This document shows, piece by piece, positions 9,999 through 48,908 of a DNA stretch of 64,000 nucleotides. Within the stretch, counting starts at the first letter, position 1, and each line of letters opens with the position of its first letter. Source of the stretch: a virus (lineage: Duplodnaviria; Caudoviricetes); the IMG/VR virus record IMGVR_UViG_3300020227_000045, positions 10,496-74,495 of that record; one strand, written 5' to 3'. The position numbers and the translations under genes are program-made. The notes below the pieces were generated by a model, which saw nothing but the letters and a program-made list of their open reading frames with translations, ran no database searches and was not told the DNA's origin.

Positions 9999-11009
9999 TT
10001 AATTCACCTCTGTTAATTTCATCACAAATTTCCTATTAGCATTAAATATAGGTAATCCATATTTCTTAATTTTATCTTTTATTGTATTGGGTGAATGACC
10101 TTTACCATATATTTTATATACCTGGTCTAAACTTTTATTATTCTCAAGCATTTCATAAAACCATAGTTTATAATAGTAATCTGAAAAATAATCAATGTCA
10201 TGGTCATATATTGTTTTTACCAACTTTATATTATAACTTTTATCTTTTTTACTTTTTCTTAAAGGTAAATAGAATTTTTTAAATGCTTTTAAGAGGGAGC
10301 CTTTAGAAATATTTTGCTCTTTACTTATTACTAATGAAGATTTTCCTTTTTTAAAATATTCATTAAACCATAAAGATTCTACAAAATGCTTATCTTTAAG
10401 TTTTTTTGTTGTGTTATTTCTTTTTTTATTAATGTCAGAATAACCTCTAACTAAGTTTTTAGTTATATATTTATAAGTAATATTATTCCTAATGTCATTT
10501 AAGGTTTGTTTATTAAGTTTTTTATAAGAATATTTTTTTATAATTTCTTTATCAGGTAATGTAGATGTATAAATATCAGTTACTTCTTCTTTTGTATATA
10601 AAGTTCCACTTTCGCTAATATCTTCATATCTATAGTCACTATAACCAAAACCATGTCTTGCATTTTCAAAAGCATATACCCATTCTAAATTTGAAGGGTG
10701 GTTATTATATACATCCCCATCTATATGATTAACAACATCCCTATTATCTTTTCTAATTTTAAAAACATCTGCAACCATCCTATGAATCTTATAATACTTA
10801 TTTTTGTAATTATAAGAAACATTTATTATAAGGTAACCAGACATATCTTCTATTATCTTATGAAATTTATTAAACATTTTATTATATATTTTATCCCCTT
10901 TTATATTTATAAAATATTTTCCAGATTCTATATAAGTTGGATAAAATATTTCGTTTTCATACTCTACTATATTTATTGGTCTTTTTTCTTTTATTACTTT
11001 ATTAACCAT
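9999..11009 (-). CDS. free-standing HNH homing endonuclease
   Basis: KIHRMVADVF...VVNHIDGDVYNNHPSNLEWV; lies directly downstream of phoH. Confidence 0.85.
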   Translation of the reverse strand: MVNKVIKEKRPINIVEYENEIFYPTYIESGKYFINIKGDKIYNKMFNKFHKIIEDMSGYLIINVSYNYKNKYYKIHRMVADVFKIRKDNRDVVNHIDGDVYNNHPSNLEWVYAFENARHGFGYSDYRYEDISESGTLYTKEEVTDIYTSTLPDKEIIKKYSYKKLNKQTLNDIRNNITYKYITKNLVRGYSDINKKRNNTTKKLKDKHFVESLWFNEYFKKGKSSLVISKEQNISKGSLLKAFKKFYLPLRKSKKDKSYNIKLVKTIYDHDIDYFSDYYYKLWFYEMLENNKSLDQVYKIYGKGHSPNTIKDKIKKYGLPIFNANRKFVMKLTEVN

Positions 11010-18523: not shown

Positions 18524-18567
18524 AATAATAAATCTCCTTAAAATGTGTTTAATTGTGCATAGTTCTT

Positions 18568-19070
18568 TTATAACCAATAAATATTTGTAAACTTCCATAA
18601 TAATTTAACTTTATTAACGTTTATTGCCTTACAGTGTTTTGTGGGTGATTTAAAATTAATAGCATTTCTTTTAGGTCTAAGACCTGTAACATACCCTCTG
18701 TGTGTTTCTCTATTACGATATGTGTATTCCACTATATCTCTATGTTTAATACCGTTAACATTATCATAAATAGCTTTACTTTTTCTTCTTATTGGTTTGA
18801 CTATATATTCTTCTATATTTAAATCCTTACTAGGAATTAAATTTGTTACAACTACTGCATCGTTAGAATGTGATTTATCTACATCCCAATCTATACGTTT
18901 ATTTGCTGTATCTCCACCTGTTGTCAATCTTAAATATGCTATTTTAGATAACTCTTGTTGTAAATAACTCTTACCTATCATAACATGAGAAGCATGGTTT
19001 AAAAAATTAAAGTTTTTCTTACCTATAATAGAGTATAAAGTATCAATATATTGTTCTTCTACACAGGTTA
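18568..19070 (-). pseudogene. iscB: truncated IscB (C-terminal RuvC-III part only)
   Basis: HVMIGKSYLQQELS...LTTGGDTANKRIDWDVDKSHSNDA matches the IscB C-terminal region; no PLMP, RuvC-I or HNH upstream; frameshifted VEEQYIDTLY remnant before it. Confidence 0.75.
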
Positions 19071-19245
19071 TCTTACCTTATCCTAAGACTTAGGTAAGTT
19101 TCTTTGTTCACACTCTTAGAGCTTCCGACTAAAGCTTGCATCTGAAGGTAAGTCTTTACCATTTTCCTCTAACGTAGTTCATATCTAGGATACGTTGTTT
19201 CCAACTCCCTAGTCACTAAGGCTTGAAACCAACTGGATAAGTATA
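19070..19245 (-). ncRNA. IscB omega-RNA (HEARO-like) scaffold
   Basis: minus strand GGTTTCAAGCCTTAGTGACT...CTACGTTAG...TACCTTCAGATGC...AGTCGGAAGCTCT, an element order typical of IscB omega-RNAs, directly 5' of the IscB remnant; limits approximate. Confidence 0.6.
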
Positions 19246-19269
19246 AATGTCTACTTATTTAGTAAGTCC

Positions 19270-19407
19270 TTATTTTAGTTTTCTTTGTATATCTTTTAGT
19301 TTATATTCTATTTTCCCTTTTCTTTTAAGTTGTAATAGGTTTTTAAATAATGTAACTAAAAAGATTAGTACAAAACCTATTATACACCCAAATAATATCA
19401 ATGTCAA
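19270..19407 (-). CDS. small membrane peptide (45 aa)
   Basis: TTG start after AGGTGG; LTLILFGCIIGFVLIFLVTLFK then a basic tail; not in the ORF track. Confidence 0.45.
   Translation of the reverse strand: MTLILFGCIIGFVLIFLVTLFKNLLQLKRKGKIEYKLKDIQRKLK
19379..19407 (-). promoter_or_regulatory. consensus sigma-A promoter upstream of the IscB omega-RNA
   Basis: TTGACA-17 bp-TATAAT (perfect consensus). Confidence 0.6.
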
Positions 19408-19464
19408 CCGCCACCTAAATTTTTCCTTTATAAAAACCGTAAGCTTTAAACTTACGGTTTAGTT

Positions 19465-22400
19465 TTAATCATCTAAAAAGAAATTATTATTGTCTTCATA
19501 GTTTGTATTAATGAATACAGAATCAAATTCATTTTCATTATTTTTAATGTACAAGTCTTCTAGACGTGATAGACCAATTCTAGCATATATACTTGCTTGA
19601 CTATAGTGGTCATCGCCTTTTCTCTTGATTACTTGATACATTTCTTCTGTTCTACTATCTTCTTCATCTCTAATTACCACATTTTGCCAATGTTTAAGAA
19701 GTATAGCTTTATCGTTATCATTTTCTTGGTAAATTCTTATTCTTCCTGTTTTTAAATCTTGGATATAAATTTTGTTCTGCATTAATTTATCTACAGTAAC
19801 AATATTTGAATTCTCATTGAATACAGGTTTAATTTGTCCAGATGATTTAGGAGATGATTTGTAAGTACAACCAAACACAATATCTTCACCAAAGTATTGT
19901 TGAAGTCTTAGTAGGTTGTTTCCTGAATCTCCTGTATCTGCTACAATAATATCTGGATTATATTTAGAAAATTCTACACGTATTTGTTCTATATCTGATT
20001 CAACCATATTAGGGTTTTTATTTCTTTTAACATTAAATAACCTAATTAAGTCTATCTTACCATCTTCGGTCATTCCATGTATAGTGCAATAATGAACATT
20101 TCCCCAATCCACTGATGCTGCGATAAATTTATAATCTCCTCTATTAAACATTTGTTTCTTAGCAATAGGAGATTGATTATCATAAATATCTTCTTGTAAT
20201 ACTTTCATCTTCTGGTCTTCATAAGGGAATCCTAGCGTGTAGTTATAAAACAATTGGGTTGATTCAGTGTTCATTTCTTTTTCTTTTAATTCACTAGCTG
20301 AAATCCAACATTTTTTGTTACGATTGAGTTCGTTATTCTCAACCTTCTATATATCGCTATATAAGTTCAGACTATATCTTTACCTTATCAAATGAGACTT
20401 AGGTATCCTCTGTTTCGTGCTACTTAGCACTACTAATTAGTCGTTGCACGTTCTCTTATTACAAGAGCTTCGCTCATGATTATCTCTAATGAGAGACTTC
20501 CCATGAATTAAAAGGACTTCACTCTGTACATTTCTATATAGAGGGGCTTGGTTAACCGCATTTAGCTGTGAAATAAAATAACCTCTTGTTCCTTTTCCAC
20601 CTTTAGTTCTTTCAGGGTACTTACAGTGCCATTCACCGTTATACCATCTATCTAGAAGTTTACCACATTTTTGACAAACAAATTGGTAACTTCCTTCTTG
20701 CACTGTTTTAGCCATCTCGTCAACACCTTCAGGATTGACTAATAGGATATTCCCACTCTTCTCTAAATTATCTGGGTCATAATCTTCATAACTCATTTCA
20801 TTTAAGTAATCACAATGTGTACATCTATGACCATAATACCATTGGTCAGATTGCATGTAGAGTTTATGGATTCCCATATTTGGAGTCGTCTTAAACATTA
20901 TTATTTTCATAATAAAATGGACTATCTCATAATCCTTATTTTTGGTTAAGGATTCTCTGCTTTACGAAATTAATCTCTTATCTGATTCTACCTTACTCCT
21001 TTTAGTAAGTTACTCAGAAATTTAGTCTCTAGGCATTTACAAGTATATAACTTGATTTAGCAATTGATTGTCTACAGCTTTACCTGTTTAGAGTTTCCAA
21101 TTTTAACAGAGTTTTTCAAAACAAATTACTTTGTTAAGCCCCACGATTTAACATAGGGGTACTCCAACGTCTTATAACCTTGAAAGGTGAACTTGACATT
21201 GATTCCATTGCTGATGATTCTGATGATGAAGGTACTCTATCATATTCCAAATTATACCGCTAGTTTCCTAGTATTTACTTACGGTTTAGACTATCTCATA
21301 ACTACTTACTTAGGTTAGTAGCTCCTTGCTTTACGAAATTAATCTCTTATCTGATTCTACCTTACTCCATTTAGTAAGTTACTCAGAAATTTAGTCGTTA
21401 GGCATTTATCAGTTAATAACTGAATTTAGCAATTGATTGCCCTCAGCATTATCTGTTAGGGGTTTCCAATTTTAACAAGGTTTATACTGGACAAATTTTA
21501 TCCAGTGACAAATAATCAATCATTTTTTTACTTAATACCCCTACTTTCGTAGTACTTTAACACTATTTAAATAGTGGGCTTAGACTATATCTTAGCTATT
21601 CATTAATAGCTCCTTGCGTTACTTCTCTTTGAAAGAGTTTTTTTATCTAAAGTAATTTAGAAATTTAGTCGTTAGAGATTTTCCTCTACATAAAGTAGAT
21701 TCTTTCCTACGGTATTCCCTCTATCCTTATAGGACTTAGGGTCTCTTACCAGCTACTTAAAGCTATGACCGTTTAGCAAGGTTTAACGTGAACAGATTAT
21801 TTTATCCACGCCTTCTAAAGCTTTAGGTGTAGAACTTGTTCTAAAGAACATACTTGAATTTCTTATTTGTTTATATTTCAAGGAATCATTATCTTGGTTA
21901 ATTATGCTTGCAAAATAAGGTTGTTGCAGTGTAGGGTTTATCCTACTTTGTACGAACTTTTGCATTTGATCACTGGTTGGGTCTAGGGTATACCGCTAGT
22001 TTCCTAGTACTTTAACACTTAATTAAAAGTCGGAGTAGACTATATCATAATCCTTATTTTCGGTTAAGGACTCTCTACGTTACGGATTAAATATCCTTTT
22101 ATCTAGTTCTCAATATTCCCTTTTGAATATTTACCTAGAAGATTAGTCGTTAGGCATTTACGTAACTAAGGTATATATACCTTAGTTCGATTTAGCAATT
22201 GATTGTCCTCATCATTACATGTTAGGAGTTTCCAATTTTAGTAGAGTTATTCGATATACATTACTGTATAAAGCCTCCCCTAATTATTTGAAGGTGAACA
22301 TACATTTGACCGAATCTTTACTATGCGTATCTGCAAAGTGTAACATCTTATTGTATCCAACTTCACTTACGTTTATACCGTCACTTTCGTGATATTTATA

Positions 22401-23255
22401 TACGGACTAGACTATATCTTGATTGTATAAAGATAATTTTAATTACGGTTTATACAACCCCTTGCTTTACGAAATTAATCTTTTATACTGTTCTACACTC
22501 AACCATTTATGAGCTTACCAGTAATTTTAGTCGTTCGGCATTTATCAGTTAGTAACTGAATTTAGCACAGGATTGTCCTCAACTTTACTTGTTAGGAGTT
22601 TCCCTGTTTAACAAGGTTTTACTTGAACAAATTTTTATCCAAGTTGTCTCGACTTAAGTACTGCTATGTTAGGATGTTTGTCATTACGTTTATACCGTCA
22701 CTTTCGTGATATTTATATACGGACTAGACTATATCATAATCCTTATCTTTGGTTAAGGATTCTCTGCTTTACATTATTTATATTAAATAAATAACTATTA
22801 TCTAGTTCTCAGTATCTCCTTTTAGATACCTACCTAGAAATTTAGTCGTTAGCCATTTATCTTAATTCTATTATAACATACACATTTAGTGTTGTCAATA
22901 CTAAAATTAAGAATTTAGGAAGGGATTCTCACTATCCGTTTGGACTTAGAGTTTCTTATCAGGATATTCTTTATTTTCCTATGCCCTTTTAACAGAGTTA
23001 TTCGATATACATTACTGTATAAAGTCACATTATTTATATGATAGCAATTTGCCATGGTCTATGAGCTTGAGCTTTACTTTTATCTCTATTTGGTATAGAA
23101 AAAGTAATATTATGACCACGTATTAAATTGTGTTTCAACATATAAGCAGTTGTACTAGACATTGTTAATACATAATCTAACTGTTCTTGGGTAACATTTG
23201 TAGTTCCATATGTGGATATGAGTAAGTCTTTTAATTGTTTTCCATCCATTTTCAT
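19465..23255 (-). CDS. terL: terminase large subunit split into 8 exons: 23255-23038, 22686-22637, 22369-22292, 21982-21804, 21520-21500, 21247-21155, 20889-20555, 20308-19465
   Basis: exons sum to 1818 nt (605 aa plus stop) and restore RPWQIAIINDKHPNIAVLKSRQLGLSE, MFTYPTSDQMQKF, EGVDIDYLSLDEYDRV, WSTPTTPNMGIH, LNAVWISAS and the nuclease motifs SVDWG and GDDHY. Confidence 0.93.
20309..20554 (-). ncRNA. group I intron terL-I7 (246 nt, ORF-less)
   Basis: GT|taacc...atG|TTGG; AACGACTAA and GATATAGTCT. Confidence 0.88.
20890..21154 (-). ncRNA. group I intron terL-I6 (265 nt, ORF-less)
   Basis: CCT|atg...aaG|ACG; AGAGACTAA and GATAGTCC. Confidence 0.85.
21248..21499 (-). ncRNA. group I intron terL-I5 (252 nt, ORF-less)
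   Basis: GAT|aaaa...ttG|GAA splits Walker B D|E; AACGACTAA and GATATAGTCT. Confidence 0.88.
21521..21803 (-). ncRNA. group I intron terL-I4 (283 nt, ORF-less)
   Basis: GAT|aaaa...atG|ATT; AACGACTAA and GATATAGTCT. Confidence 0.88.
21983..22291 (-). ncRNA. group I intron terL-I3 (309 nt, ORF-less)
   Basis: U/G junctions restore T-Y-P-T; AACGACTAA and GATATAGTCT. Confidence 0.85.
22370..22636 (-). ncRNA. group I intron terL-I2 (267 nt, ORF-less)
   Basis: U/G junctions; CGACTAAA and GATATAGTCT; splits the Walker A region QLG|LS. Confidence 0.88.
22687..23037 (-). ncRNA. group I intron terL-I1 (351 nt, ORF-less)
   Basis: 5' exon ends in U, intron ends in G; P7 elements AACGACTA and GATATAGTCT. 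Confidence 0.88.
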
Positions 23256-23257
23256 AA

Positions 23258-23728
23258 TTAAAACGTCTCCGAATTTTGTTTATTCATAAGTTTCTCTTTT
23301 TCTGTAACCATTTCTGCTACTTCATCAGCAGTCATTTCAGATAACTTATCTAAGTCCACATATTCATTTCCGTCTTCGTCTACTTCACCTGTAGTTTCAA
23401 CGAAGTTACTTAGTACAGCACGTTCTTTTTCTCCTAATGCAGGTAGCGTACCCATACCACCTGAAGCATTACCATTCATTTCACTAATTTGTCCGTACAT
23501 GACTAATAATTTATAGATGTCGTTTGTGTCGTTTACATTGATTTCTCCACGTTCGACTTTATCTTCTAGTTTAATCATAAGTTTTTGTATGACACTTAAA
23601 AAACCATTGGATATAGCTTCATTCGCATCTTCATTCTCTCGCTTTTTTTGTTTGAGTTGGTTTCTCATCGTATCTACTCTTGATTTCAAAAGTAAATCAC
23701 TCCTCTTTCTTGTATTTATAACAATCAC
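23258..23728 (-). CDS. putative terminase small subunit
   Basis: immediately upstream of terL; helical protein; the true start may be the internal MRNQLK. Confidence 0.55.
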   Translation of the reverse strand: MIVINTRKRSDLLLKSRVDTMRNQLKQKKRENEDANEAISNGFLSVIQKLMIKLEDKVERGEINVNDTNDIYKLLVMYGQISEMNGNASGGMGTLPALGEKERAVLSNFVETTGEVDEDGNEYVDLDKLSEMTADEVAEMVTEKEKLMNKQNSETF

Positions 23729-29259: not shown

Positions 29260-32235
29260 ATGGTTGCAAAACTCACAGAAAAAGAAGCAATAGCATTTGT
29301 CAAAAGTTTAGAAGGTAAGAAAATAGACTTTGATGGATGGTACGGATATTAACATAATGGTATCCTAACTCATTGAATTGACGGGAACCCCCTTAGAGCT
29401 TTAACTACTAACTTATCATGGTGACATAGGTAAGGGCAAACAGTAATGTGTTTGGTAAAGTAAAAAAGTTAAAGATTGGGAAATCCGCAGGTAAGCTACT
29501 ATGGTAACAGTAGTAGAAACTTCAACGACTAAATACTATCAATTGGTAGTTAGTGGTGAGTACTTGATAAAAGTTAAGTAATAATATAGTCTGTTCTTAT
29601 AGGAAACTATAAGAGTTACATTATACAATCAATGGTAGAAATATTATTGAGGAAAGATGATAACATAACAAAAAGCAATGTTTTGACCTAGCTAATGAAT
29701 ATTGGAATAAATTATTTGGCACAAGTCTTAAAGGTGTAGGAGCAAAAGACATACCTAATTCAAATAATTTTAAAGGTATAGCTAAGGTATATAATAATAC
29801 ATCTTCATTTAAAGCTAAACCAGGTGATTTGGTAATTTTCAACTCATCTTATGGTGGCGGGTATGGTCACGTAGCTATAGTTTTAAATGGAAATGCAGAT
29901 GGAAATTTAATGAAGTTTGTAAGTCTTGACCAGAATCAAATAAGGTTCCCTTTATATAGTAATATATAATTGAATAACACATTAAATTGCTGGAACCCCG
30001 TAAAGCTCAATTAACTACAACGTAATAGGAAACTATAAGCGTGAAAGTTAGGAAACTAGAAAAAATAATTGAGATACCATAAGCTGAGAAAAAGCTCAAA
30101 GAGTGCTAAGTGGTGAATAATCGGAAATCAGCATCCAAACCTACAAATAGTGGGGAGGTTCAACGACTATAATATGTGGCTCCTATAAGGAGTATGGTAT
30201 AGTCTAGTCCGTAAATAAATACTAGGAAACTAGCGGTATAGACGTGGCAAGGCGGAGGATGGACAAGTGGTCCAGAAAAAGGTGGTACAGGTTGGGAAGC
30301 AGCAACAAGAGTAACTCATCCATACGATTTCCCTATGTGGTTTATCAGACCATATTACAAAGAAGAGTCAAAAACAAAAACTACAAGTAAAAAAACAACA
30401 GCTAAGAAAAAAGCTAAAAAACTAACTTATATTCGTGATGAAGTAAAAGGTTATCGTTTACCTAATCGTGGATATAAGCCAAAAGGGATAGTTCTACACA
30501 ACGATGCGGGTAGTGCAGGTGCTACAGCTGAAGCGTACCATCGTGGATTAGTAAATGCACCATACTCAAGATTAGCTGCTGGTATTGCTCATTCTTATAT
30601 CAGTGGTAACACAGTATATCAAGCATTACCAGAAAGCAGAGTAGGTTGGCATACGGCTTAATTTAGGTCATTTGTATAGTAATATACATCTAAATGTGTT
30701 TTAATTCAGAGGAAGTCTAAACAATATAAGTTGTAGATAATTCTGAGCTAAGTTTATATTGACATATAATTATATTTATTGTATAATATTCATAGGAGGA
30801 GATTTTATGGAATTATACAAATTAGAAAATATTAAAGGTTTAGAAGAATTAAAAGGATACTCAATAGATAAAGAAGGTAACGTATACTCTCACAAATATA
30901 CAACTTCGAATGGTAATACTTTTTATTATCATATATCAAATGAACCAGTTAAGAAATTAACTACTAAAAAAGATAGTAGAGGTTATATAAAAATAGGGTT
31001 AAACGGTAAAAGTTTATTCATTCATAGGCTGTTAGCTTTATTATTTATTCCTAATCCAGAGAATAAAGAACAAGTAAATCATATGAACGGTGTTAAAGAT
31101 GATAATAGAATAGAAAATTTAGAATGGTGTACAAACAGAGAAAATAGAATACATGCTATAGAGAATAATTTGTTAGATAACATACCTTATGGCATTTCTC
31201 AGTACACTAAAGAAGGGTTACATGTTAGAGATTATGATACTTGTTTAGAAGCTATAGAATACTTAGGCTTAGACAAAGGTGCTTCTGGAAATATAGGAAG
31301 ATGTATTAGAGGTAAAAGAAAAACAGCTTATGGTTATATATGGAAGTCAATATAAAAAAGTGCAACGACTATCCCTTAGGACGAGTGCCAATAAAAATAA
31401 ATCGTCAACAGGAGTAGGGCTCAAGTCAATGGAGTGGGTGAAAATCCCTTAAATCGAAAAGGACACTTCCTTTTATAAGGAAAAGATATAGTCTATTCTT
31501 ATAGGAAACTATAAGGAGTTCATAAGAGAACCAATAAAGAGTTACGAACTTTATTGAATATTAAAGAACCAAAATGGTAATAAAAATTACTATGGTATAG
31601 AAATATGTCAATCTATAGGTGCAAGTGATAAAGTATTCTTAGCTAATGAACAAGCATCTTTCCAAGAAGCTGCTCGTTTATTAAATAAATGGGGATTAAC
31701 AGCTAATAGAAATACTATCCGTTTACACATGGAATTTTCTCAAACTAGCTGTCCTCATAGAAGTATGAAGTTACACACTGGTTTTGACCCTGTAACACAA
31801 GGCGTACCTTCAAAAGCTACACAGCTTAAACTCAAAGACTATTTTATTAAGCAAATTCGTGCTTATCAAAATGGTAAAATACCAACTGCAACTGTTTCTA
31901 AAAACACTAGCTCTGCAAGCAATACAAAATCAACTGTAGCAGGAAAATGGAAACGTAATTCTTTCGGAACGTATTACATGACAGAAAAAGCTAGATTTAC
32001 TAATGGTAATCAACCTATAGCAGCAAGAACAGTAGGACCTTTCAGAAGTTGTCCATTAGCTTATTGGTTCCAACCAGGAGGATACTGTGATTATGACGAA
32101 GTAATGCTTCAAGATGGTCACGTATGGATTGGATATGATTGGCAAGGACAAAGATATTATCTTCCTATACGTACATGGAATGGAGTAGCTCCTCCAAATC
32201 AAGGTTTAGGAAACCTTTGGGGTTCAATTAAGTAA
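29260..32235 (+). CDS. endolysin (CHAP - amidase_2 - SH3b) in 4 exons: 29260-29349, 29676-29936, 30245-30658, 31567-32235
   Basis: exons sum to 1434 nt (477 aa); joins give DGWYGY|[17 protein letters not shown]|WQGGG, LHND, GWHTA|[17 protein letters not shown] and an SH3b C-terminus. Confidence 0.93.
29350..29675 (+). ncRNA. group I intron lys-I1 (326 nt, ORF-less)
   Basis: TAT|taac...aaG|CAA; TTCAACGACTA and TATAGTCT. Confidence 0.88.
29937..30244 (+). ncRNA. group I intron lys-I2 (308 nt, ORF-less)
   Basis: AAT|caaa...acG|TGG; TTCAACGACTA and TATAGTCT. Confidence 0.88.
30659..31566 (+). ncRNA. group I intron lys-I3 (908 nt) with HNH gene
   Basis: GCT|taat...aaG|AAC; TGCAACGACTA and AAGATATAGTCT. 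Confidence 0.9.
30807..31355 (+). CDS. intron-encoded HNH homing endonuclease with NUMOD1-like tail
   Basis: AGGAGG SD, ATG 30807; [36 protein letters not shown]; C-terminal [15 protein letters not shown]. Confidence 0.92.
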   Translation: MELYKLENIKGLEELKGYSIDKEGNVYSHKYTTSNGNTFYYHISNEPVKKLTTKKDSRGYIKIGLNGKSLFIHRLLALLFIPNPENKEQVNHMNGVKDDNRIENLEWCTNRENRIHAIENNLLDNIPYGISQYTKEGLHVRDYDTCLEAIEYLGLDKGASGNIGRCIRGKRKTAYGYIWKSI

Positions 32236-40537: not shown

Positions 40538-43211
40538 ATGTCTAACCAAATGTTCGGAGGACATCTAGACCCATACGAAACAACAGATAACTATGAGTAC
40601 CCTTATCACCCAGCAGGTAATCCTAAAAAGATAGATAAATCAGAAGTAGAATCATATACTCTAGCTGATTATGGTTGGACACCTGAAGCTATCAAAGAAC
40701 ATTACATGTATGGTATAAGGGTACAAAACCCTGAAACAGGTAAAGAAATGGATGATGCTTTCTATTATCATGTATTTGAAGTGGCTATAGATAAAGCAGA
40801 AAAAGCATTAGATATATCTATACTACCTGATTTCCAAGATGAACAAAGAGACTATTATGAACAAGACTTCAATAGTTACATGTTTGTTCATGCTTATAAA
40901 AAACCAATACTACAAGTTGAAGGATTACAATTACACTTCAATGGTAGACCAATATATAAATATCCAGCTAACTGGTGGAAAGTACACCATGTAGATGGAC
41001 AAGTACAGTTATATCCAACAGCTTTAATGCAAGTAGGACAGGGAGCTAGTTATTCTAGTGCGGTGAGTGGTTATCCTTATCTAGCAGGTATGATGCCACC
41101 ACAAGGTAATACTTATGCTCCTCAAATGATACATTTAGAATACATTTCAGGTATGTTACCACAGAAAAGAGCAGGCGTAACTAAACCATGGGAATGTCCT
41201 ACAAGTTTACAACAATTAGTAATTAAATACGCACTTAAAGAGATATACCAAGTATGGGGTTACGATGATATTACCCTGTGTGTAGCGTAAGTTGCACATT
41301 TTCAAAGGTTAACTGCTAAGAAATCCTAAAGCTAACTAAACTACAAAGTAATCTGAAAGGATAGGCTTGAATGTTGAGAAATCAGAAAAAATTAGTTAGA
41401 TACTCTAAGGTTAAATCCTAAGGAGAAGAGCAATGGAAGTTTAGCATCGAAAGTCCTAAGTCAATAGATAAGGAATACGTTCAACGACTATTCTGTATAG
41501 ACGACAGAAGTAAAGCTCCAAGTGATTGGGAGAAGAAAAATCTTTACCCTAGTCTTAGGGATAACAAATAGTCTGCACACGTCTTGAAAAAGAGTGCTAG
41601 GAATTGACCTAGACTTATTTAGTAGCGTAAGTAAGGAAACAATGTTAATTAAATGAAAACTTCCTATTGAAATTACCCCAAGTATATGTTATATTATAGG
41701 TATAATATATATAAGGTGGTGAAAGTAAATGAAAAAAACGGAAAATAAATTTTATAGAGGTATAATACTAAAAGTAAACCCTACACAAGAACAAGAAGAT
41801 TTAATGTGGAAACATGTTAATCACTCAAGGTTTATTTATAATTATATGTTAGAAAGATATTGGGAAGCTTTAGATAGTGATAAATATATAGACTATAAGA
41901 ATATGCTTTCTTTACTTAAGGAAATGAAAAAAGAAGATGATTATGATTTCTTAAATGAAGTATCTAGAAAAACTTTAGTTGGTAAAATAGATGATTTAAG
42001 AGAAGCTTTAATAAAGTACCATAATCATGAAATAAGAAAACCTAAATTTAAGTCTAAAAAGAGAGAACCTAAACGTTTTCCAATTAGATATGACCGTATG
42101 CACTTCAGTAAAGAAAAAAGTGTTAAGGTTGAGAAGTTAGGCTACTTAAGAATTTCTAATGGAACATATAAAAATAATAAATCAGTACTTGAGAATGAAA
42201 ACATTAAACCTTTAAATCCTAAGTGCTATTATGACGGTAAATATTGGTATGTATCATTTTCGGTAGAAGTAGATAATCAATACAAAAAAGAAAATGATAA
42301 CACTGATGAAGTTGTAGGAATAGACTTAGGTAGTGGTAAAAAACACGTAATTTGTTCTAACAGAAAAATATATGGTAATATTATTTATTCTAAGAAAATG
42401 AAAAGGTTAGAAAAAAAAATATCTGACCTACAGAAAAGATTAAGTAATAAATATGATATTAACCACACCAAAACAAATAATGTTTTAAAGCTAGAAAATA
42501 AGATAGCTAAAGTTTATAGGAAAATGTCAAATATCCGTAAAAATCATGTACATGAAATAACAAAAGAAATTGTTGAAAAGTATCCTAAAGAGATTATTGT
42601 AGAGGATATAAGAGTTCGTGATTTAATAAAAGACAGAGGATATACAGGACAAAAAAGAAAAAAAATACAGTTTTCTAATTTCTATATGATTAGACAGCAA
42701 TTACAATATAAATGTGAAGATAGAGGTATAAAATTTACAGTAGCTAATACTTATTATCCATCATCACAAATATGTAGTAATTGCGGAGAAAGAAAAAGAA
42801 ATGCTTTAAAATTACAGTTAGGTGATAAAGTCTTTAAATGTAATGCTTGTGGATATGAAGAAGATAGAGATATTAATGCAAGTATTAACTTAAAAAATTA
42901 CCATAAATCTCAATGGTTAAAAGAACAAAACCAATAATATGTTTGCTTTTAGTAGGGTTCTATAACCCGAAAATATAATGCCTTTTATTTTAAGAAGGAA
43001 GTTAATTTAATTAACATATGGTAATCTCATTATCGGTGCAGGAATAGCAAACAAATCACTAGATGTTGATGGTATTAGTGAAACAATCGGTACTACTCAA
43101 TCAGCTATGTATGGTGGAGCTAGTGCTCAAATACTTCAAATAAATGAAGATATTGGAGAACTACTAAAAGGTCTACAATCATACTTTGGTACCAACATGG
43201 TAGCTATCTAA
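40538..43211 (+). CDS. conserved head-neck (adaptor-like) virion protein in 2 exons: 40538-~41258 and ~43021-43211
   Basis: join restores KEIYQVWG|NLIIGAGIANKSLDVDGISETIGTTQSAMYGGASAQIL; 912 nt = 303 aa. Confidence 0.85.
41259..43020 (+). mobile_element. IStron-like element: group I intron core plus tnpB, no transposase
   Basis: intron core ~41260-41640 (TTCAACGACTA 41481, AAATAGTCT 41567), internal promoter, tnpB, short 3' tail ending CATATG; GG at both junctions; ends uncertain by 1-3 nt. Confidence 0.85.
41729..42937 (+). CDS. tnpB: intron-encoded TnpB nuclease
   Basis: LKVNPTQEQ...HSRFIYNY, VGIDLG, IIVEDI, CSNCG...CNACG, DRDINASINL. Confidence 0.92.
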   Translation: MKKTENKFYRGIILKVNPTQEQEDLMWKHVNHSRFIYNYMLERYWEALDSDKYIDYKNMLSLLKEMKKEDDYDFLNEVSRKTLVGKIDDLREALIKYHNHEIRKPKFKSKKREPKRFPIRYDRMHFSKEKSVKVEKLGYLRISNGTYKNNKSVLENENIKPLNPKCYYDGKYWYVSFSVEVDNQYKKENDNTDEVVGIDLGSGKKHVICSNRKIYGNIIYSKKMKRLEKKISDLQKRLSNKYDINHTKTNNVLKLENKIAKVYRKMSNIRKNHVHEITKEIVEKYPKEIIVEDIRVRDLIKDRGYTGQKRKKIQFSNFYMIRQQLQYKCEDRGIKFTVANTYYPSSQICSNCGERKRNALKLQLGDKVFKCNACGYEEDRDINASINLKNYHKSQWLKEQNQ

Positions 43212-47641: not shown

Positions 47642-48908
47642 ATGGCAAGTGAAGCTAAACAGTCCATTCACACTGGTAATACCGTCTATCTCATGATTAA
47701 AGGTAAAATTGTAGGCAGAGCTCAATCAGCTTCAGGTACTCGTGAATACGGTACTGAGGGCGTATATGAAATTGGTTCAATTATGCCACAAGAACACGTT
47801 TACCTTAGATATGAAGGTACGGTTACAATAGAAAGATTACGAATGAAAAAAGAAAACTTCGCAAAATTAGGATATGCTTCTTTAGGTGAAGAAATCCTTA
47901 AAAAAGATGTTATCGACATTTTAGTTGTAGATAACTTAACTAAGAGTGTAATCATAGCATACCATGGTTGTAGTGCTAATAACTATAAAATTTGTAGCTT
48001 TAGGAAGTAATTCCTATCGAAAAACTTTTCTAAACAGGGAAACCTAAGTACAATTTGTATAAGGCAATCCTGTGCTAAATTGACTTAATCAGTCATAAAT
48101 GCCAAACGACTAACAGAAACCTATTCATATAAGTGAAGGGAGTAAGAGTACAGCCAAGTGGTCAAGGTGTTGGGTAATAACCAAATAAATCCTTGTTAAA
48201 TGGAAAAGAAAAGAATCCTTAATATAAAAAGGATTATGATATAGTCTCATCTATATGGAAACATATAGCAGTTCTAAAAGAACGTACAATGATTAACGAC
48301 CATTGTAGAAGTAAATGGATGAAGAAATTAATACCAATGAAATGATTACAGAAAGTATTGAGTAGGTAAAAAGCTCCTATAATCAGAAATGGTTATAGCA
48401 AATCTCTCTAATTCATGGAAACCCCTAACAAGTAATGATGAGGGCAATCATGAGCGAAGCTCTTAAAACAAGAGAACGTGCAACGACTAGTCTACGGACG
48501 TACAATCAAGTGATTGGAAATGGGAGACACCTTCAATTTTAAGGTGATGATATAGTCTGAACTATATGGAAACATATAGAAGGATAGAATTAACGATTCT
48601 ATTCGTAACAAAATTGTTTCTTATCTTACAGCATTAAATTTCTAGTGCCCTTATACAGTAATGTATATTGAATCAATCCTCTAATTCAGGGAAACCCTAA
48701 ACGAAATTAAGACGTAGGCAATCCTGAGCCAAGCCTATAATTAGGAAGGTGCAACGACTATCTCTAAGGAGAGTACGCTCAAGTGAGTGGAAATGGGGAT
48801 TATCCTATACAATATAGGATAGTGATATAGTCTGGACTATATGGAAACATATAGAAGGTTAGGAGTAACGAACCTAATCGTAACATAATCGCAGATAAAG
48901 CATCATAA
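47642..48908 (+). CDS. tail tube protein in 4 exons: 47642-47986, 48318-48363, 48617-48634, 48892-48908
   Basis: exons sum to 426 nt (141 aa): ...GCSANNY|DEEINTNEMITESIE|FSYLTA|SDKAS-stop. Confidence 0.92.
47987..48317 (+). ncRNA. group I intron tube-I1 (331 nt, ORF-less)
   Basis: U/G junctions; AAACGACTAA and GATATAGTCT. Confidence 0.87.
48364..48616 (+). ncRNA. group I intron tube-I2 (253 nt, ORF-less)
   Basis: U/G junctions; TGCAACGACTA and GATATAGTCT. Confidence 0.87.
48635..48891 (+). ncRNA. group I intron tube-I3 (257 nt, ORF-less)
   Basis: U/G junctions; TGCAACGACTA and GATATAGTCT. Confidence 0.87.

Follow-up and report, generated by a model that had tools for sequence, protein, structure and literature searches.

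A terminase gene of an uncultured Baoshanvirus-like Staphylococcus phage, apparently split at its ATPase motifs by seven endonuclease-free group I introns

The DNA analyzed here (the window) is a stretch of 64,000 nucleotides (nt), positions 10,496 to 74,495 of the record IMGVR_UViG_3300020227_000045, and forms part of a 74.5-kb IMG/VR virus contig. Its minus strand carries, at positions 19465-23255, the gene terL, which encodes a large terminase of the GpA type. When the uninterrupted TerL protein of the Kayvirus Stab20 (605 amino acids, aa) was used as the tblastn query, eight colinear minus-strand pieces aligned with this intron-free homolog, giving a gene of eight exons (E1-E8) and seven introns (I1-I7). 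The nearest GenBank phages to positions 19300-23400 belong to Baoshanvirus, namely vB_SurM-PSU4 (95.6% identity) and phiSA_BS1 (94.6%), with a query cover of only 67-71% (megablast). Judged by its sequence, the host genome is that of a Baoshanvirus-like Staphylococcus phage (Herelleviridae, Twortvirinae), which is uncultured. Twort itself was also considered as the identity of the window and was dropped because the terL layout of its record MT151386 differs.

The spliced TerL protein is 66-68% identical to Kayvirus TerL. In Pfam searches, Stab20 TerL matched GpA_ATPase (PF05876) with 62 bits over residues 79-287; exon 7 of the window alone gave a partial match to the same family (24.4 bits, slightly below the cut-off of 25.6), and exon 8 gave a weak match to Terminase_6C, an RNaseH-like domain. 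This arrangement, an ATPase domain followed by an RNaseH-like nuclease domain, is that of the lambda gpA-type terminases. A phmmer search of a TerL homolog against PDB sequences returned nothing meaningful.

To place the splice sites, all donor and acceptor positions were scanned at each junction, and it was required that the frame be kept, that the exon end in T and that the intron end in G. Exactly one solution was found at each of the seven junctions, with a U as the last exon base before the intron and a terminal G in all seven introns. The joined exons amount to 1,818 nt, i.e., 605 codons and a single terminal stop, and removal of the introns restores a gene that is known in uninterrupted form elsewhere (Table 1). 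An earlier reading of the window, made from its letters alone (the sequence-only reading), had given the same coordinates, the same eight exons and 605 codons, and the exon-U/intron-G rule at every junction, all of which proved correct. In I1-I6, an in-frame stop lies within 0-6 codons past the 5′ splice site. The longest open reading frame (ORF) inside any of the seven introns, on both strands, is 37 aa, and therefore no intron is able to encode an endonuclease; the homing endonuclease that characterizes a mobile group I intron is absent from the window introns, as had been claimed.

Table 1. Layout of terL in the window, with insertion sites given as nucleotides of the spliced coding sequence (CDS), scores against Rfam family RF00028 and contiguous base pairs in P1.
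Feature	Coordinates	Strand	Length (nt)	CDS site (nt)	RF00028 (bits)	P1 (bp)	Remarks
Exon 1	23038..23255	-	218				Codons 1-73 in part; 100% aa identity to PSU4 exon 1
Intron 1	22687..23037	-	351	218	21.8	4	Site seen in window only
Exon 2	22637..22686	-	50				Encodes NDKHPNIAVLKSRQLG
Intron 2	22370..22636	-	267	268	55.4	8	Inside P-loop-like motif
Exon 3	22292..22369	-	78
Intron 3	21983..22291	-	309	346	46.3	3
Exon 4	21804..21982	-	179
Intron 4	21521..21803	-	283	525	27.3	9	E 4.9e-4
Exon 5	21500..21520	-	21				Micro-exon, IDYLSLD, Walker B-like
Intron 5	21248..21499	-	252	546	41.1	7	Between Asp182 and Glu183
Exon 6	21155..21247	-	93				Ends ...RRWSTP
Intron 6	20890..21154	-	265	639	53.7	4
Exon 7	20555..20889	-	335
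Intron 7	20309..20554	-	246	974	90.6	3	Different intron subfamily
Exon 8	19465..20308	-	844				Includes stop; nuclease half

The nature of the introns was examined with the Rfam family RF00028. The matches of I7, I2 and I6 were above the gathering score of 50 bits, and those of I3, I5 and I4 were below it, each with an E-value of at most 5e-4. I1 reached no more than 21.8 bits (E 0.0017) when 391 nt were searched locally. Both I1 and I4 were placed in the intron family by alignment: I1 aligns with the other introns through P3, the P7 strands ACGACUA and GAUAUAGUC, P8 and P9, and P3, P8 and P9 of I4 pair in the family alignment. Six window introns and ten from relatives, all members of the I1-I6 family, were aligned over 406 columns for an RNAalifold consensus; across these 16 sequences, 29 of the 39 consensus pairs, located in P3, P4/P5, P7.1/7.2, P8 and P9, were kept through changes on both sides. 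The catalytic core of RF00028 (P3-P8 with the guanosine site in P7) was also found. Furthermore, each of the seven introns allows a P1 helix that places a U.G wobble at the cleavage site, and among all T positions of the gene just 0.2-0.8% attain P1 lengths such as those of I2, I4 and I5. The group I character proposed by the sequence-only reading is upheld by these data, through RF00028 for I2-I7 and through a weak match plus clear homology for I1. As far as sequence comparison tells, I1-I6 are one recombining intron family and I7 represents a second. At this level, the analysis confirms seven ORF-less group I introns that interrupt terL at its ATPase motifs.

The insertion contexts were recovered as originally described: site 268 falls in KSRQLG|LSE, sites 525 and 546 flank the micro-exon (EGVD|IDY and LSLD|EYD), and site 639 follows WSTP (WSTP|T). 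In terms of lambda gpA-type terminases, these contexts would be the P-loop-like segment, the Asp-Glu of Walker B and the coupling motif, respectively, and the spacing of the segments appears to fit the lambda gpA assignment. One detail has to be changed. The first insertion among these motifs had been located after Walker A; the context KSRQLG|L is right, but I2 lies inside the P-loop-like KSRQLGLSE rather than after it. Homing endonucleases target conserved DNA, and such insertion sites are their expected signature (PMC3984707). The position of the window introns in motif-coding sequence would thus reflect the preference for conserved DNA of the homing endonucleases that sister introns of related phages encode.

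The terL genes of seven relatives were mapped in the same way: vB_SurM-PSU4 (OL436245; five introns), phiSA_BS1 (three), phiSA_BS2 (three), JDF86 (two), RSM-J51Sa (five), Golestan101 (five) and the IMG/VR genome UViG_3300010165 (six). A unique U|...G| solution existed for 30 of 30 introns in these relatives, and removal of the introns by the U/G rule brought each of the seven genes to exactly 1,818 nt with one stop. Window and relatives together use 14 insertion sites (CDS nt 202, 218, 268, 346, 351, 525, 542, 546, 639, 886, 898, 974, 1053 and 1674), half of which are occupied in the window (218, 268, 346, 525, 546, 639 and 974); introns at nt 218 or 525 were seen in none of the seven mapped relatives. 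Intron-free alleles are present in BS1 at the first four window sites, in PSU4 at the fifth, in UViG_3300010165 at the sixth, and in BS1 and BS2 at the seventh. When Twort is added to the seven Baoshanvirus-group phages, none of the eight relatives examined has the same set of seven introns.

At shared sites the introns themselves are closely related. I2 is identical over 267/267 nt to the same-site intron of UViG_3300010165, I6 is 96-98.5% identical to those of RSM-J51Sa, BS1, JDF86 and BS2, and the first 244 of the 246 nt of I7 are 100% identical to the Golestan101 intron; this near-identity of I2, I6 and I7 fits recent exchange by homing or recombination. I3 is 90-93% identical to the same-site introns of BS2 and UViG_3300010165. 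At site 639, PSU4 has a 1,228-nt form with an ORF, and at site 546, BS1, BS2 and JDF86 have an endonuclease-bearing intron of ~1,255 nt. Differences in the spliced CDS were overwhelmingly synonymous (77 synonymous to 8 nonsynonymous versus PSU4, and 75 to 7 versus BS2), and therefore selection appears to act on the spliced reading frame.

Independent assemblies were used to inspect the junctions. A public run labelled as a plant metagenome (X1), which contains 95% of the sampled words and is the probable source sample, has been assembled separately as Logan contigs. X1 contigs were 100% identical to the window at a depth of 12.6-28.4, and the phage as a whole reaches ~25-fold depth in the sample. 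Six of the 14 junctions are bridged cleanly by these contigs (both flanks of I7, I4-E4-I3 and I2-E2-I1), at three further ones (I6/E6, E5/I5 and E1/I1) the contig extends just 6-34 nt past the junction on one side, and the remaining five fall in gaps between the eight contigs listed. Among the X1 contigs listed, no intron-free junction was seen at sites 1-4 or 7. Contig 19 of X18, an unrelated RNA-library run from another study, spans the I4/E4 junction and differs from the window at 3 of 190 nt; outside the window, site 525 was seen occupied in this contig only. In a fish-gut metatranscriptome, a contig with an apparent I2-less joint was considered as spliced RNA and rejected, because the end of the upstream intron is retained in it; the contig therefore comes from a relative lacking I2.

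Several observations speak against a gene that is interrupted by seven functional introns, and these should be set beside the evidence above. X1 holds at least one further strain, which is seen over window positions 20886-21510 at a depth of 6.6-8, has a terL without introns 5 and 6 and carries synonymous codons across the Walker B exon. Spliced terL junctions were not found among the RNA-library contigs aligned to the region, and those contigs hold relatives with other intron sets. I1 and I4 score under the Rfam gathering threshold, and the P1 helices of I1, I3, I6 and I7 have only 3-4 pairs, which taken alone are indistinguishable from chance. The reading frame continues for 39 codons into I7 before a stop, and therefore ribosomes could disturb the folding of this intron. 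Finally, the U/G rule at junction 3 yields Tyr116, where intron-free relatives have Phe. As for the further strain, it represents an intron presence/absence polymorphism within one sample.

The Tyr116 discrepancy follows a regular pattern. After in silico splicing, codon 116 (window 22290-22292 / 21981-21982) is TAC (Tyr) in all three carriers of the site-346 intron, i.e., the window, the cultured BS2 and UViG_3300010165, and TTT or TTC (Phe) in all non-carriers. Tyr116 is thus linked to the site-346 intron, and either co-conversion or a requirement of the splice site would be expected to produce such a link. An alternative placement of junction 3 that gives Phe was rejected, since it would need a terminal A, and inspection by hand of P10 pairing at this junction (Phe versus Tyr) gave no usable helix.

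Overall, these results make it very probable that the terL gene of this uncultured Baoshanvirus-like Staphylococcus phage is interrupted by seven endonuclease-free group I introns. Judging from the behavior of the intron family, the 3.8-kb late transcript would fold into seven independent ribozymes. In each of them, P1 would pair the last 3-9 exon bases with the internal guide sequence, leaving a U.G wobble at the cleavage site; a free guanosine bound in P7 would attack there, and the 3′-OH of the released exon would then attack after the terminal G. The 605-aa TerL would be encoded only by a transcript free of all seven introns, and packaging would accordingly need seven correct splicing events. 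The sequence-only reading had described the seven reactions as sequential, which is not borne out: they would be independent, with each ribozyme acting alone.

Three other explanations were weighed. An assembly chimera, in which the contig joins at least two co-occurring strains across repeated intron sequence and no real genome has all seven introns, could account for the breaks of the X1 Logan contigs at repeated intron segments, for the minor variant without I5 and I6, for another joint at depth 7.5, and for the identical 49-nt end of I1 and I2. However, the intron-bearing contigs have a depth of 12.6-28.4, and intron-free junction contigs occur only at sites 5 and 6, at 6.6-8; moreover, the exon order is fully colinear with TerL, the frame closes to 605 codons, and six introns are found in a relative that was assembled elsewhere. 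Such a chimera is unlikely, and we give it only a very small chance. Decay of the gene, in which at least one intron (I1 or I4, both divergent, being the likeliest) has lost the ability to splice and terL is a pseudogene in a defective genome, is hard to reconcile with exons that are under strong purifying selection and undamaged in frame, with the ~25-fold depth of the phage in the sample, and with the recurrence of the I4/E4 junction in a run of another study. The low scores of I1 and I4 against RF00028 (21.8 and 27.3 bits), the structure of I1 as a deletion mosaic and the fact that introns at nt 218 and 525 were seen in no cultured relative would suit decay; on the contrary, P3, P8 and P9 of both introns pair with compensatory changes, the P7 strands show conservation across the aligned family, and I4 has the longest P1 of all (9 bp). 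We therefore regard decay as highly improbable.

It may also be asked whether the introns, though genuine, are non-autonomous, i.e., whether a protein of the phage or host, such as a maturase or chaperone, is required to remove them efficiently in the cell. Some Bastillevirinae introns are spliced in vivo and not in vitro, and exon skipping has been recorded in Twort orf142 and in SIOphi (PMC11878797). In the window, several P1 helices are short, and exons of 21 nt and 50 nt between near-identical introns invite misfolding or exon skipping; skipping of E2 and E5, both small exons flanked by similar introns, is a real possibility. Nothing in the sequence requires a cofactor, however, and related Twort introns self-splice in vitro, a point that we take as established knowledge and that was reportedly made by Landthaler and Shub in 1999 and 2002. 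Dependence on a protein is, in our estimate, rather unlikely.

A question raised by seven endonuclease-free introns in one gene is where they came from. In the relatives, long introns of ~1,230-1,330 nt occupy sites 268, 351, 546, 639, 898, 1053 and 1674. Their ORFs of ~300 aa contain treble-clef Zn-finger and CapR domains, one of them also matching DUF2726, and are annotated in GenBank as HNH or VSR-type homing endonucleases. The window introns would be endonuclease-less derivatives of such sister introns. I1 is a mosaic: its nt 14-51 are 95% identical to I3, its nt 39-264 are 92% identical to the site-898 intron of Golestan101, and its final 49 nt repeat the end of I2 without a difference. 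It holds a perfect TTGACA-17-TATAAT promoter (12/12) at 22870..22898 (-), and an identical 29-mer lies in the Golestan101 site-898 intron ~100 nt ahead of a 312-aa ORF with treble-clef Zn-finger and CapR domains; the homology between the two introns stops at about the start of this ORF. The shared promoter 29-mer and the end of homology near the ORF start therefore point to I1 as an endonuclease-deletion relic, with its promoter as the apparent remnant of the lost endonuclease gene. A parallel exists at site 1053, where RSM-J51Sa has both promoter and ORF, and UViG_3300010165 and Golestan101 have the promoter only. Endonuclease-less copies would probably persist through clean splicing and because an occupied site could not be cut by the endonuclease of a co-infecting relative.

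Features of the guide sequences bear on how the introns were distributed over the gene. I2, I4 and I5 share a 5′ module and each follows TGGAT, a pentamer that occurs seven times in the CDS, with these introns at three of its occurrences. Their guides (GUUCAAG in I2, GUUCACG in I4 and GUCCAG in I5) are each complementary to their own exon upstream beyond TGGAT. The first ~93 nt of I4 are 90% identical to the Golestan101 site-898 intron (the shared 5′ module), which has a guide differing from that of I4 by one base and follows GGUGAGU. In BS1 and RSM-J51Sa, an intron 85% identical to I7 lies at CDS nt 886, 88 nt upstream (L002 4052-4299 and L009 3485-3732). A tentative explanation, which we hold to be possible and still doubtful, is that introns multiplied within terL by guide-sequence retargeting, through reverse splicing to new sites followed by module exchange, and that endonuclease-free copies serve as armor by destroying the target sites of rivals. 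Insertion directed by the guide sequence would be expected to leave a pattern of this kind; DNA-level alternatives to reverse splicing, namely relaxed endonuclease specificity or recombination between introns, may also account for it. For reverse-splicing spread in general, direct evidence is lacking and introns of ribosomal DNA (rDNA) are the best circumstantial cases (PMC3984707). As a separate observation, the I7 type provides a second example of a single kind of intron that occupies two neighboring positions (nt 886 after ...TGGT and nt 974 after ...CGGT), both preceded by an exon ending in GGU.

Other features were noted elsewhere in the window. Just downstream of terL, positions 18545-19285 (-) include ~670 nt that are missing from the PSU4 layout; a weak HEARO/omega-RNA match lies at 19067-19222 (23.5 bits, E 0.073, Rfam), and a 137-aa ORF at 18568-18981 matched no Pfam family. 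A second perfect TTGACA-17-TATAAT promoter is located at 19379-19407 (-), ~60 nt downstream of the terL stop; it begins at the TTG start codon of a 45-aa ORF (19270-19407), and its -10 box is within that ORF. Three strong consecutive group I introns (79, 98.3 and 98.1 bits) at 47976-48854 (+) resemble the three-intron tail-tube gene orf142 of Twort, and a weak group I match of 21 bits is found at ~41345-41596. Two further Rfam matches exceed their gathering scores, i.e., the Staphylococcus small RNA S808 at 31800-32054 (+; 85.2 bits) and RAGATH-18 at 2046-2134 (-; 60 bits).

The arrangement is of interest for several reasons. With seven introns in 3.8 kb, and with exons of 21 nt and 50 nt between near-identical ribozymes, an essential enzyme would depend on seven accurate RNA reactions. 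The window and its relatives form a natural series of 14 sites, at which introns, some with an endonuclease gene and some lacking one, are present or absent in almost all combinations. This series may serve to ask by what route introns without an ORF arrive at new sites, how endonuclease genes are lost from them, and whether occupied sites protect in mixed infections. There is also a practical side: annotation pipelines fragment such terL genes, and because terL is used in phage taxonomy and in typing by polymerase chain reaction, the fragments mislead.

It is textbook knowledge that phage terminase genes can contain group I introns. In the searchable literature, we found no publication on these seven introns and none with more than three introns in one phage gene, and the literature on Baoshanvirus, phiSA_BS1 and the Golestan phages does not mention terL introns. 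The sequence-only reading overrated the novelty: close relatives in public databases already have five or six introns in other combinations, but the particular set of seven is not repeated in the relatives examined. These Baoshanvirus terL genes are the nearest comparison, being the same gene with 90-95% nt identity over the spliced CDS and the same intron families, with identical or near-identical introns at sites 268, 346, 639 and 974 and an endonuclease-bearing form at 546. They differ in having 2-6 introns, several with endonuclease genes, and in using sites 202, 351, 542, 886, 898, 1053 and 1674, which are empty in the window; their GenBank records give the exons as separate CDSs or leave them unannotated.

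The introns of Twort and its subfamily are similar in that they come from the same phage subfamily, are small group I introns of late and DNA-metabolism genes, and occur several to a gene, with exon skipping reported. In contrast, their published maximum is three per gene, compared with seven in the window, all ORF-less, and in Twort terL itself the number is two or three, of which two contain endonuclease genes. In the Twort record (MT151386; L004 40030-44673), terL is given as a join of three segments; the tblastn search resolved four blocks of exon sequence, which would imply one more intron, ORF-less and ~257 nt long, following residue ~70. For the multi-intron terL and DNA polymerase genes of Bastillevirinae, Weglewska et al. 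(2025, PMC11878797) demonstrated splicing both in vivo and in vitro. These Bacillus phages are likewise Herelleviridae with group I introns in terL, at most three per gene, but belong to another host and subfamily and have fewer, mostly longer introns (mean 802 nt), often with endonuclease genes (PMC11878797). Outside phages, related group I introns at different sites of nuclear rDNA are circumstantial evidence of spread by reverse splicing (Bhattacharya et al. 2005, PMC1299323; review PMC3984707); they share with the window paralogs at several sites of one gene and short 5′-exon matches to the internal guide sequence, and differ in residing in eukaryotic rRNA genes rather than in a protein-coding phage gene. 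Set against these systems, the terL gene of the window takes to an extreme what such phages were already known to do; it is the most intron-rich example seen so far of a known phenomenon in its clade and not a new kind of thing.

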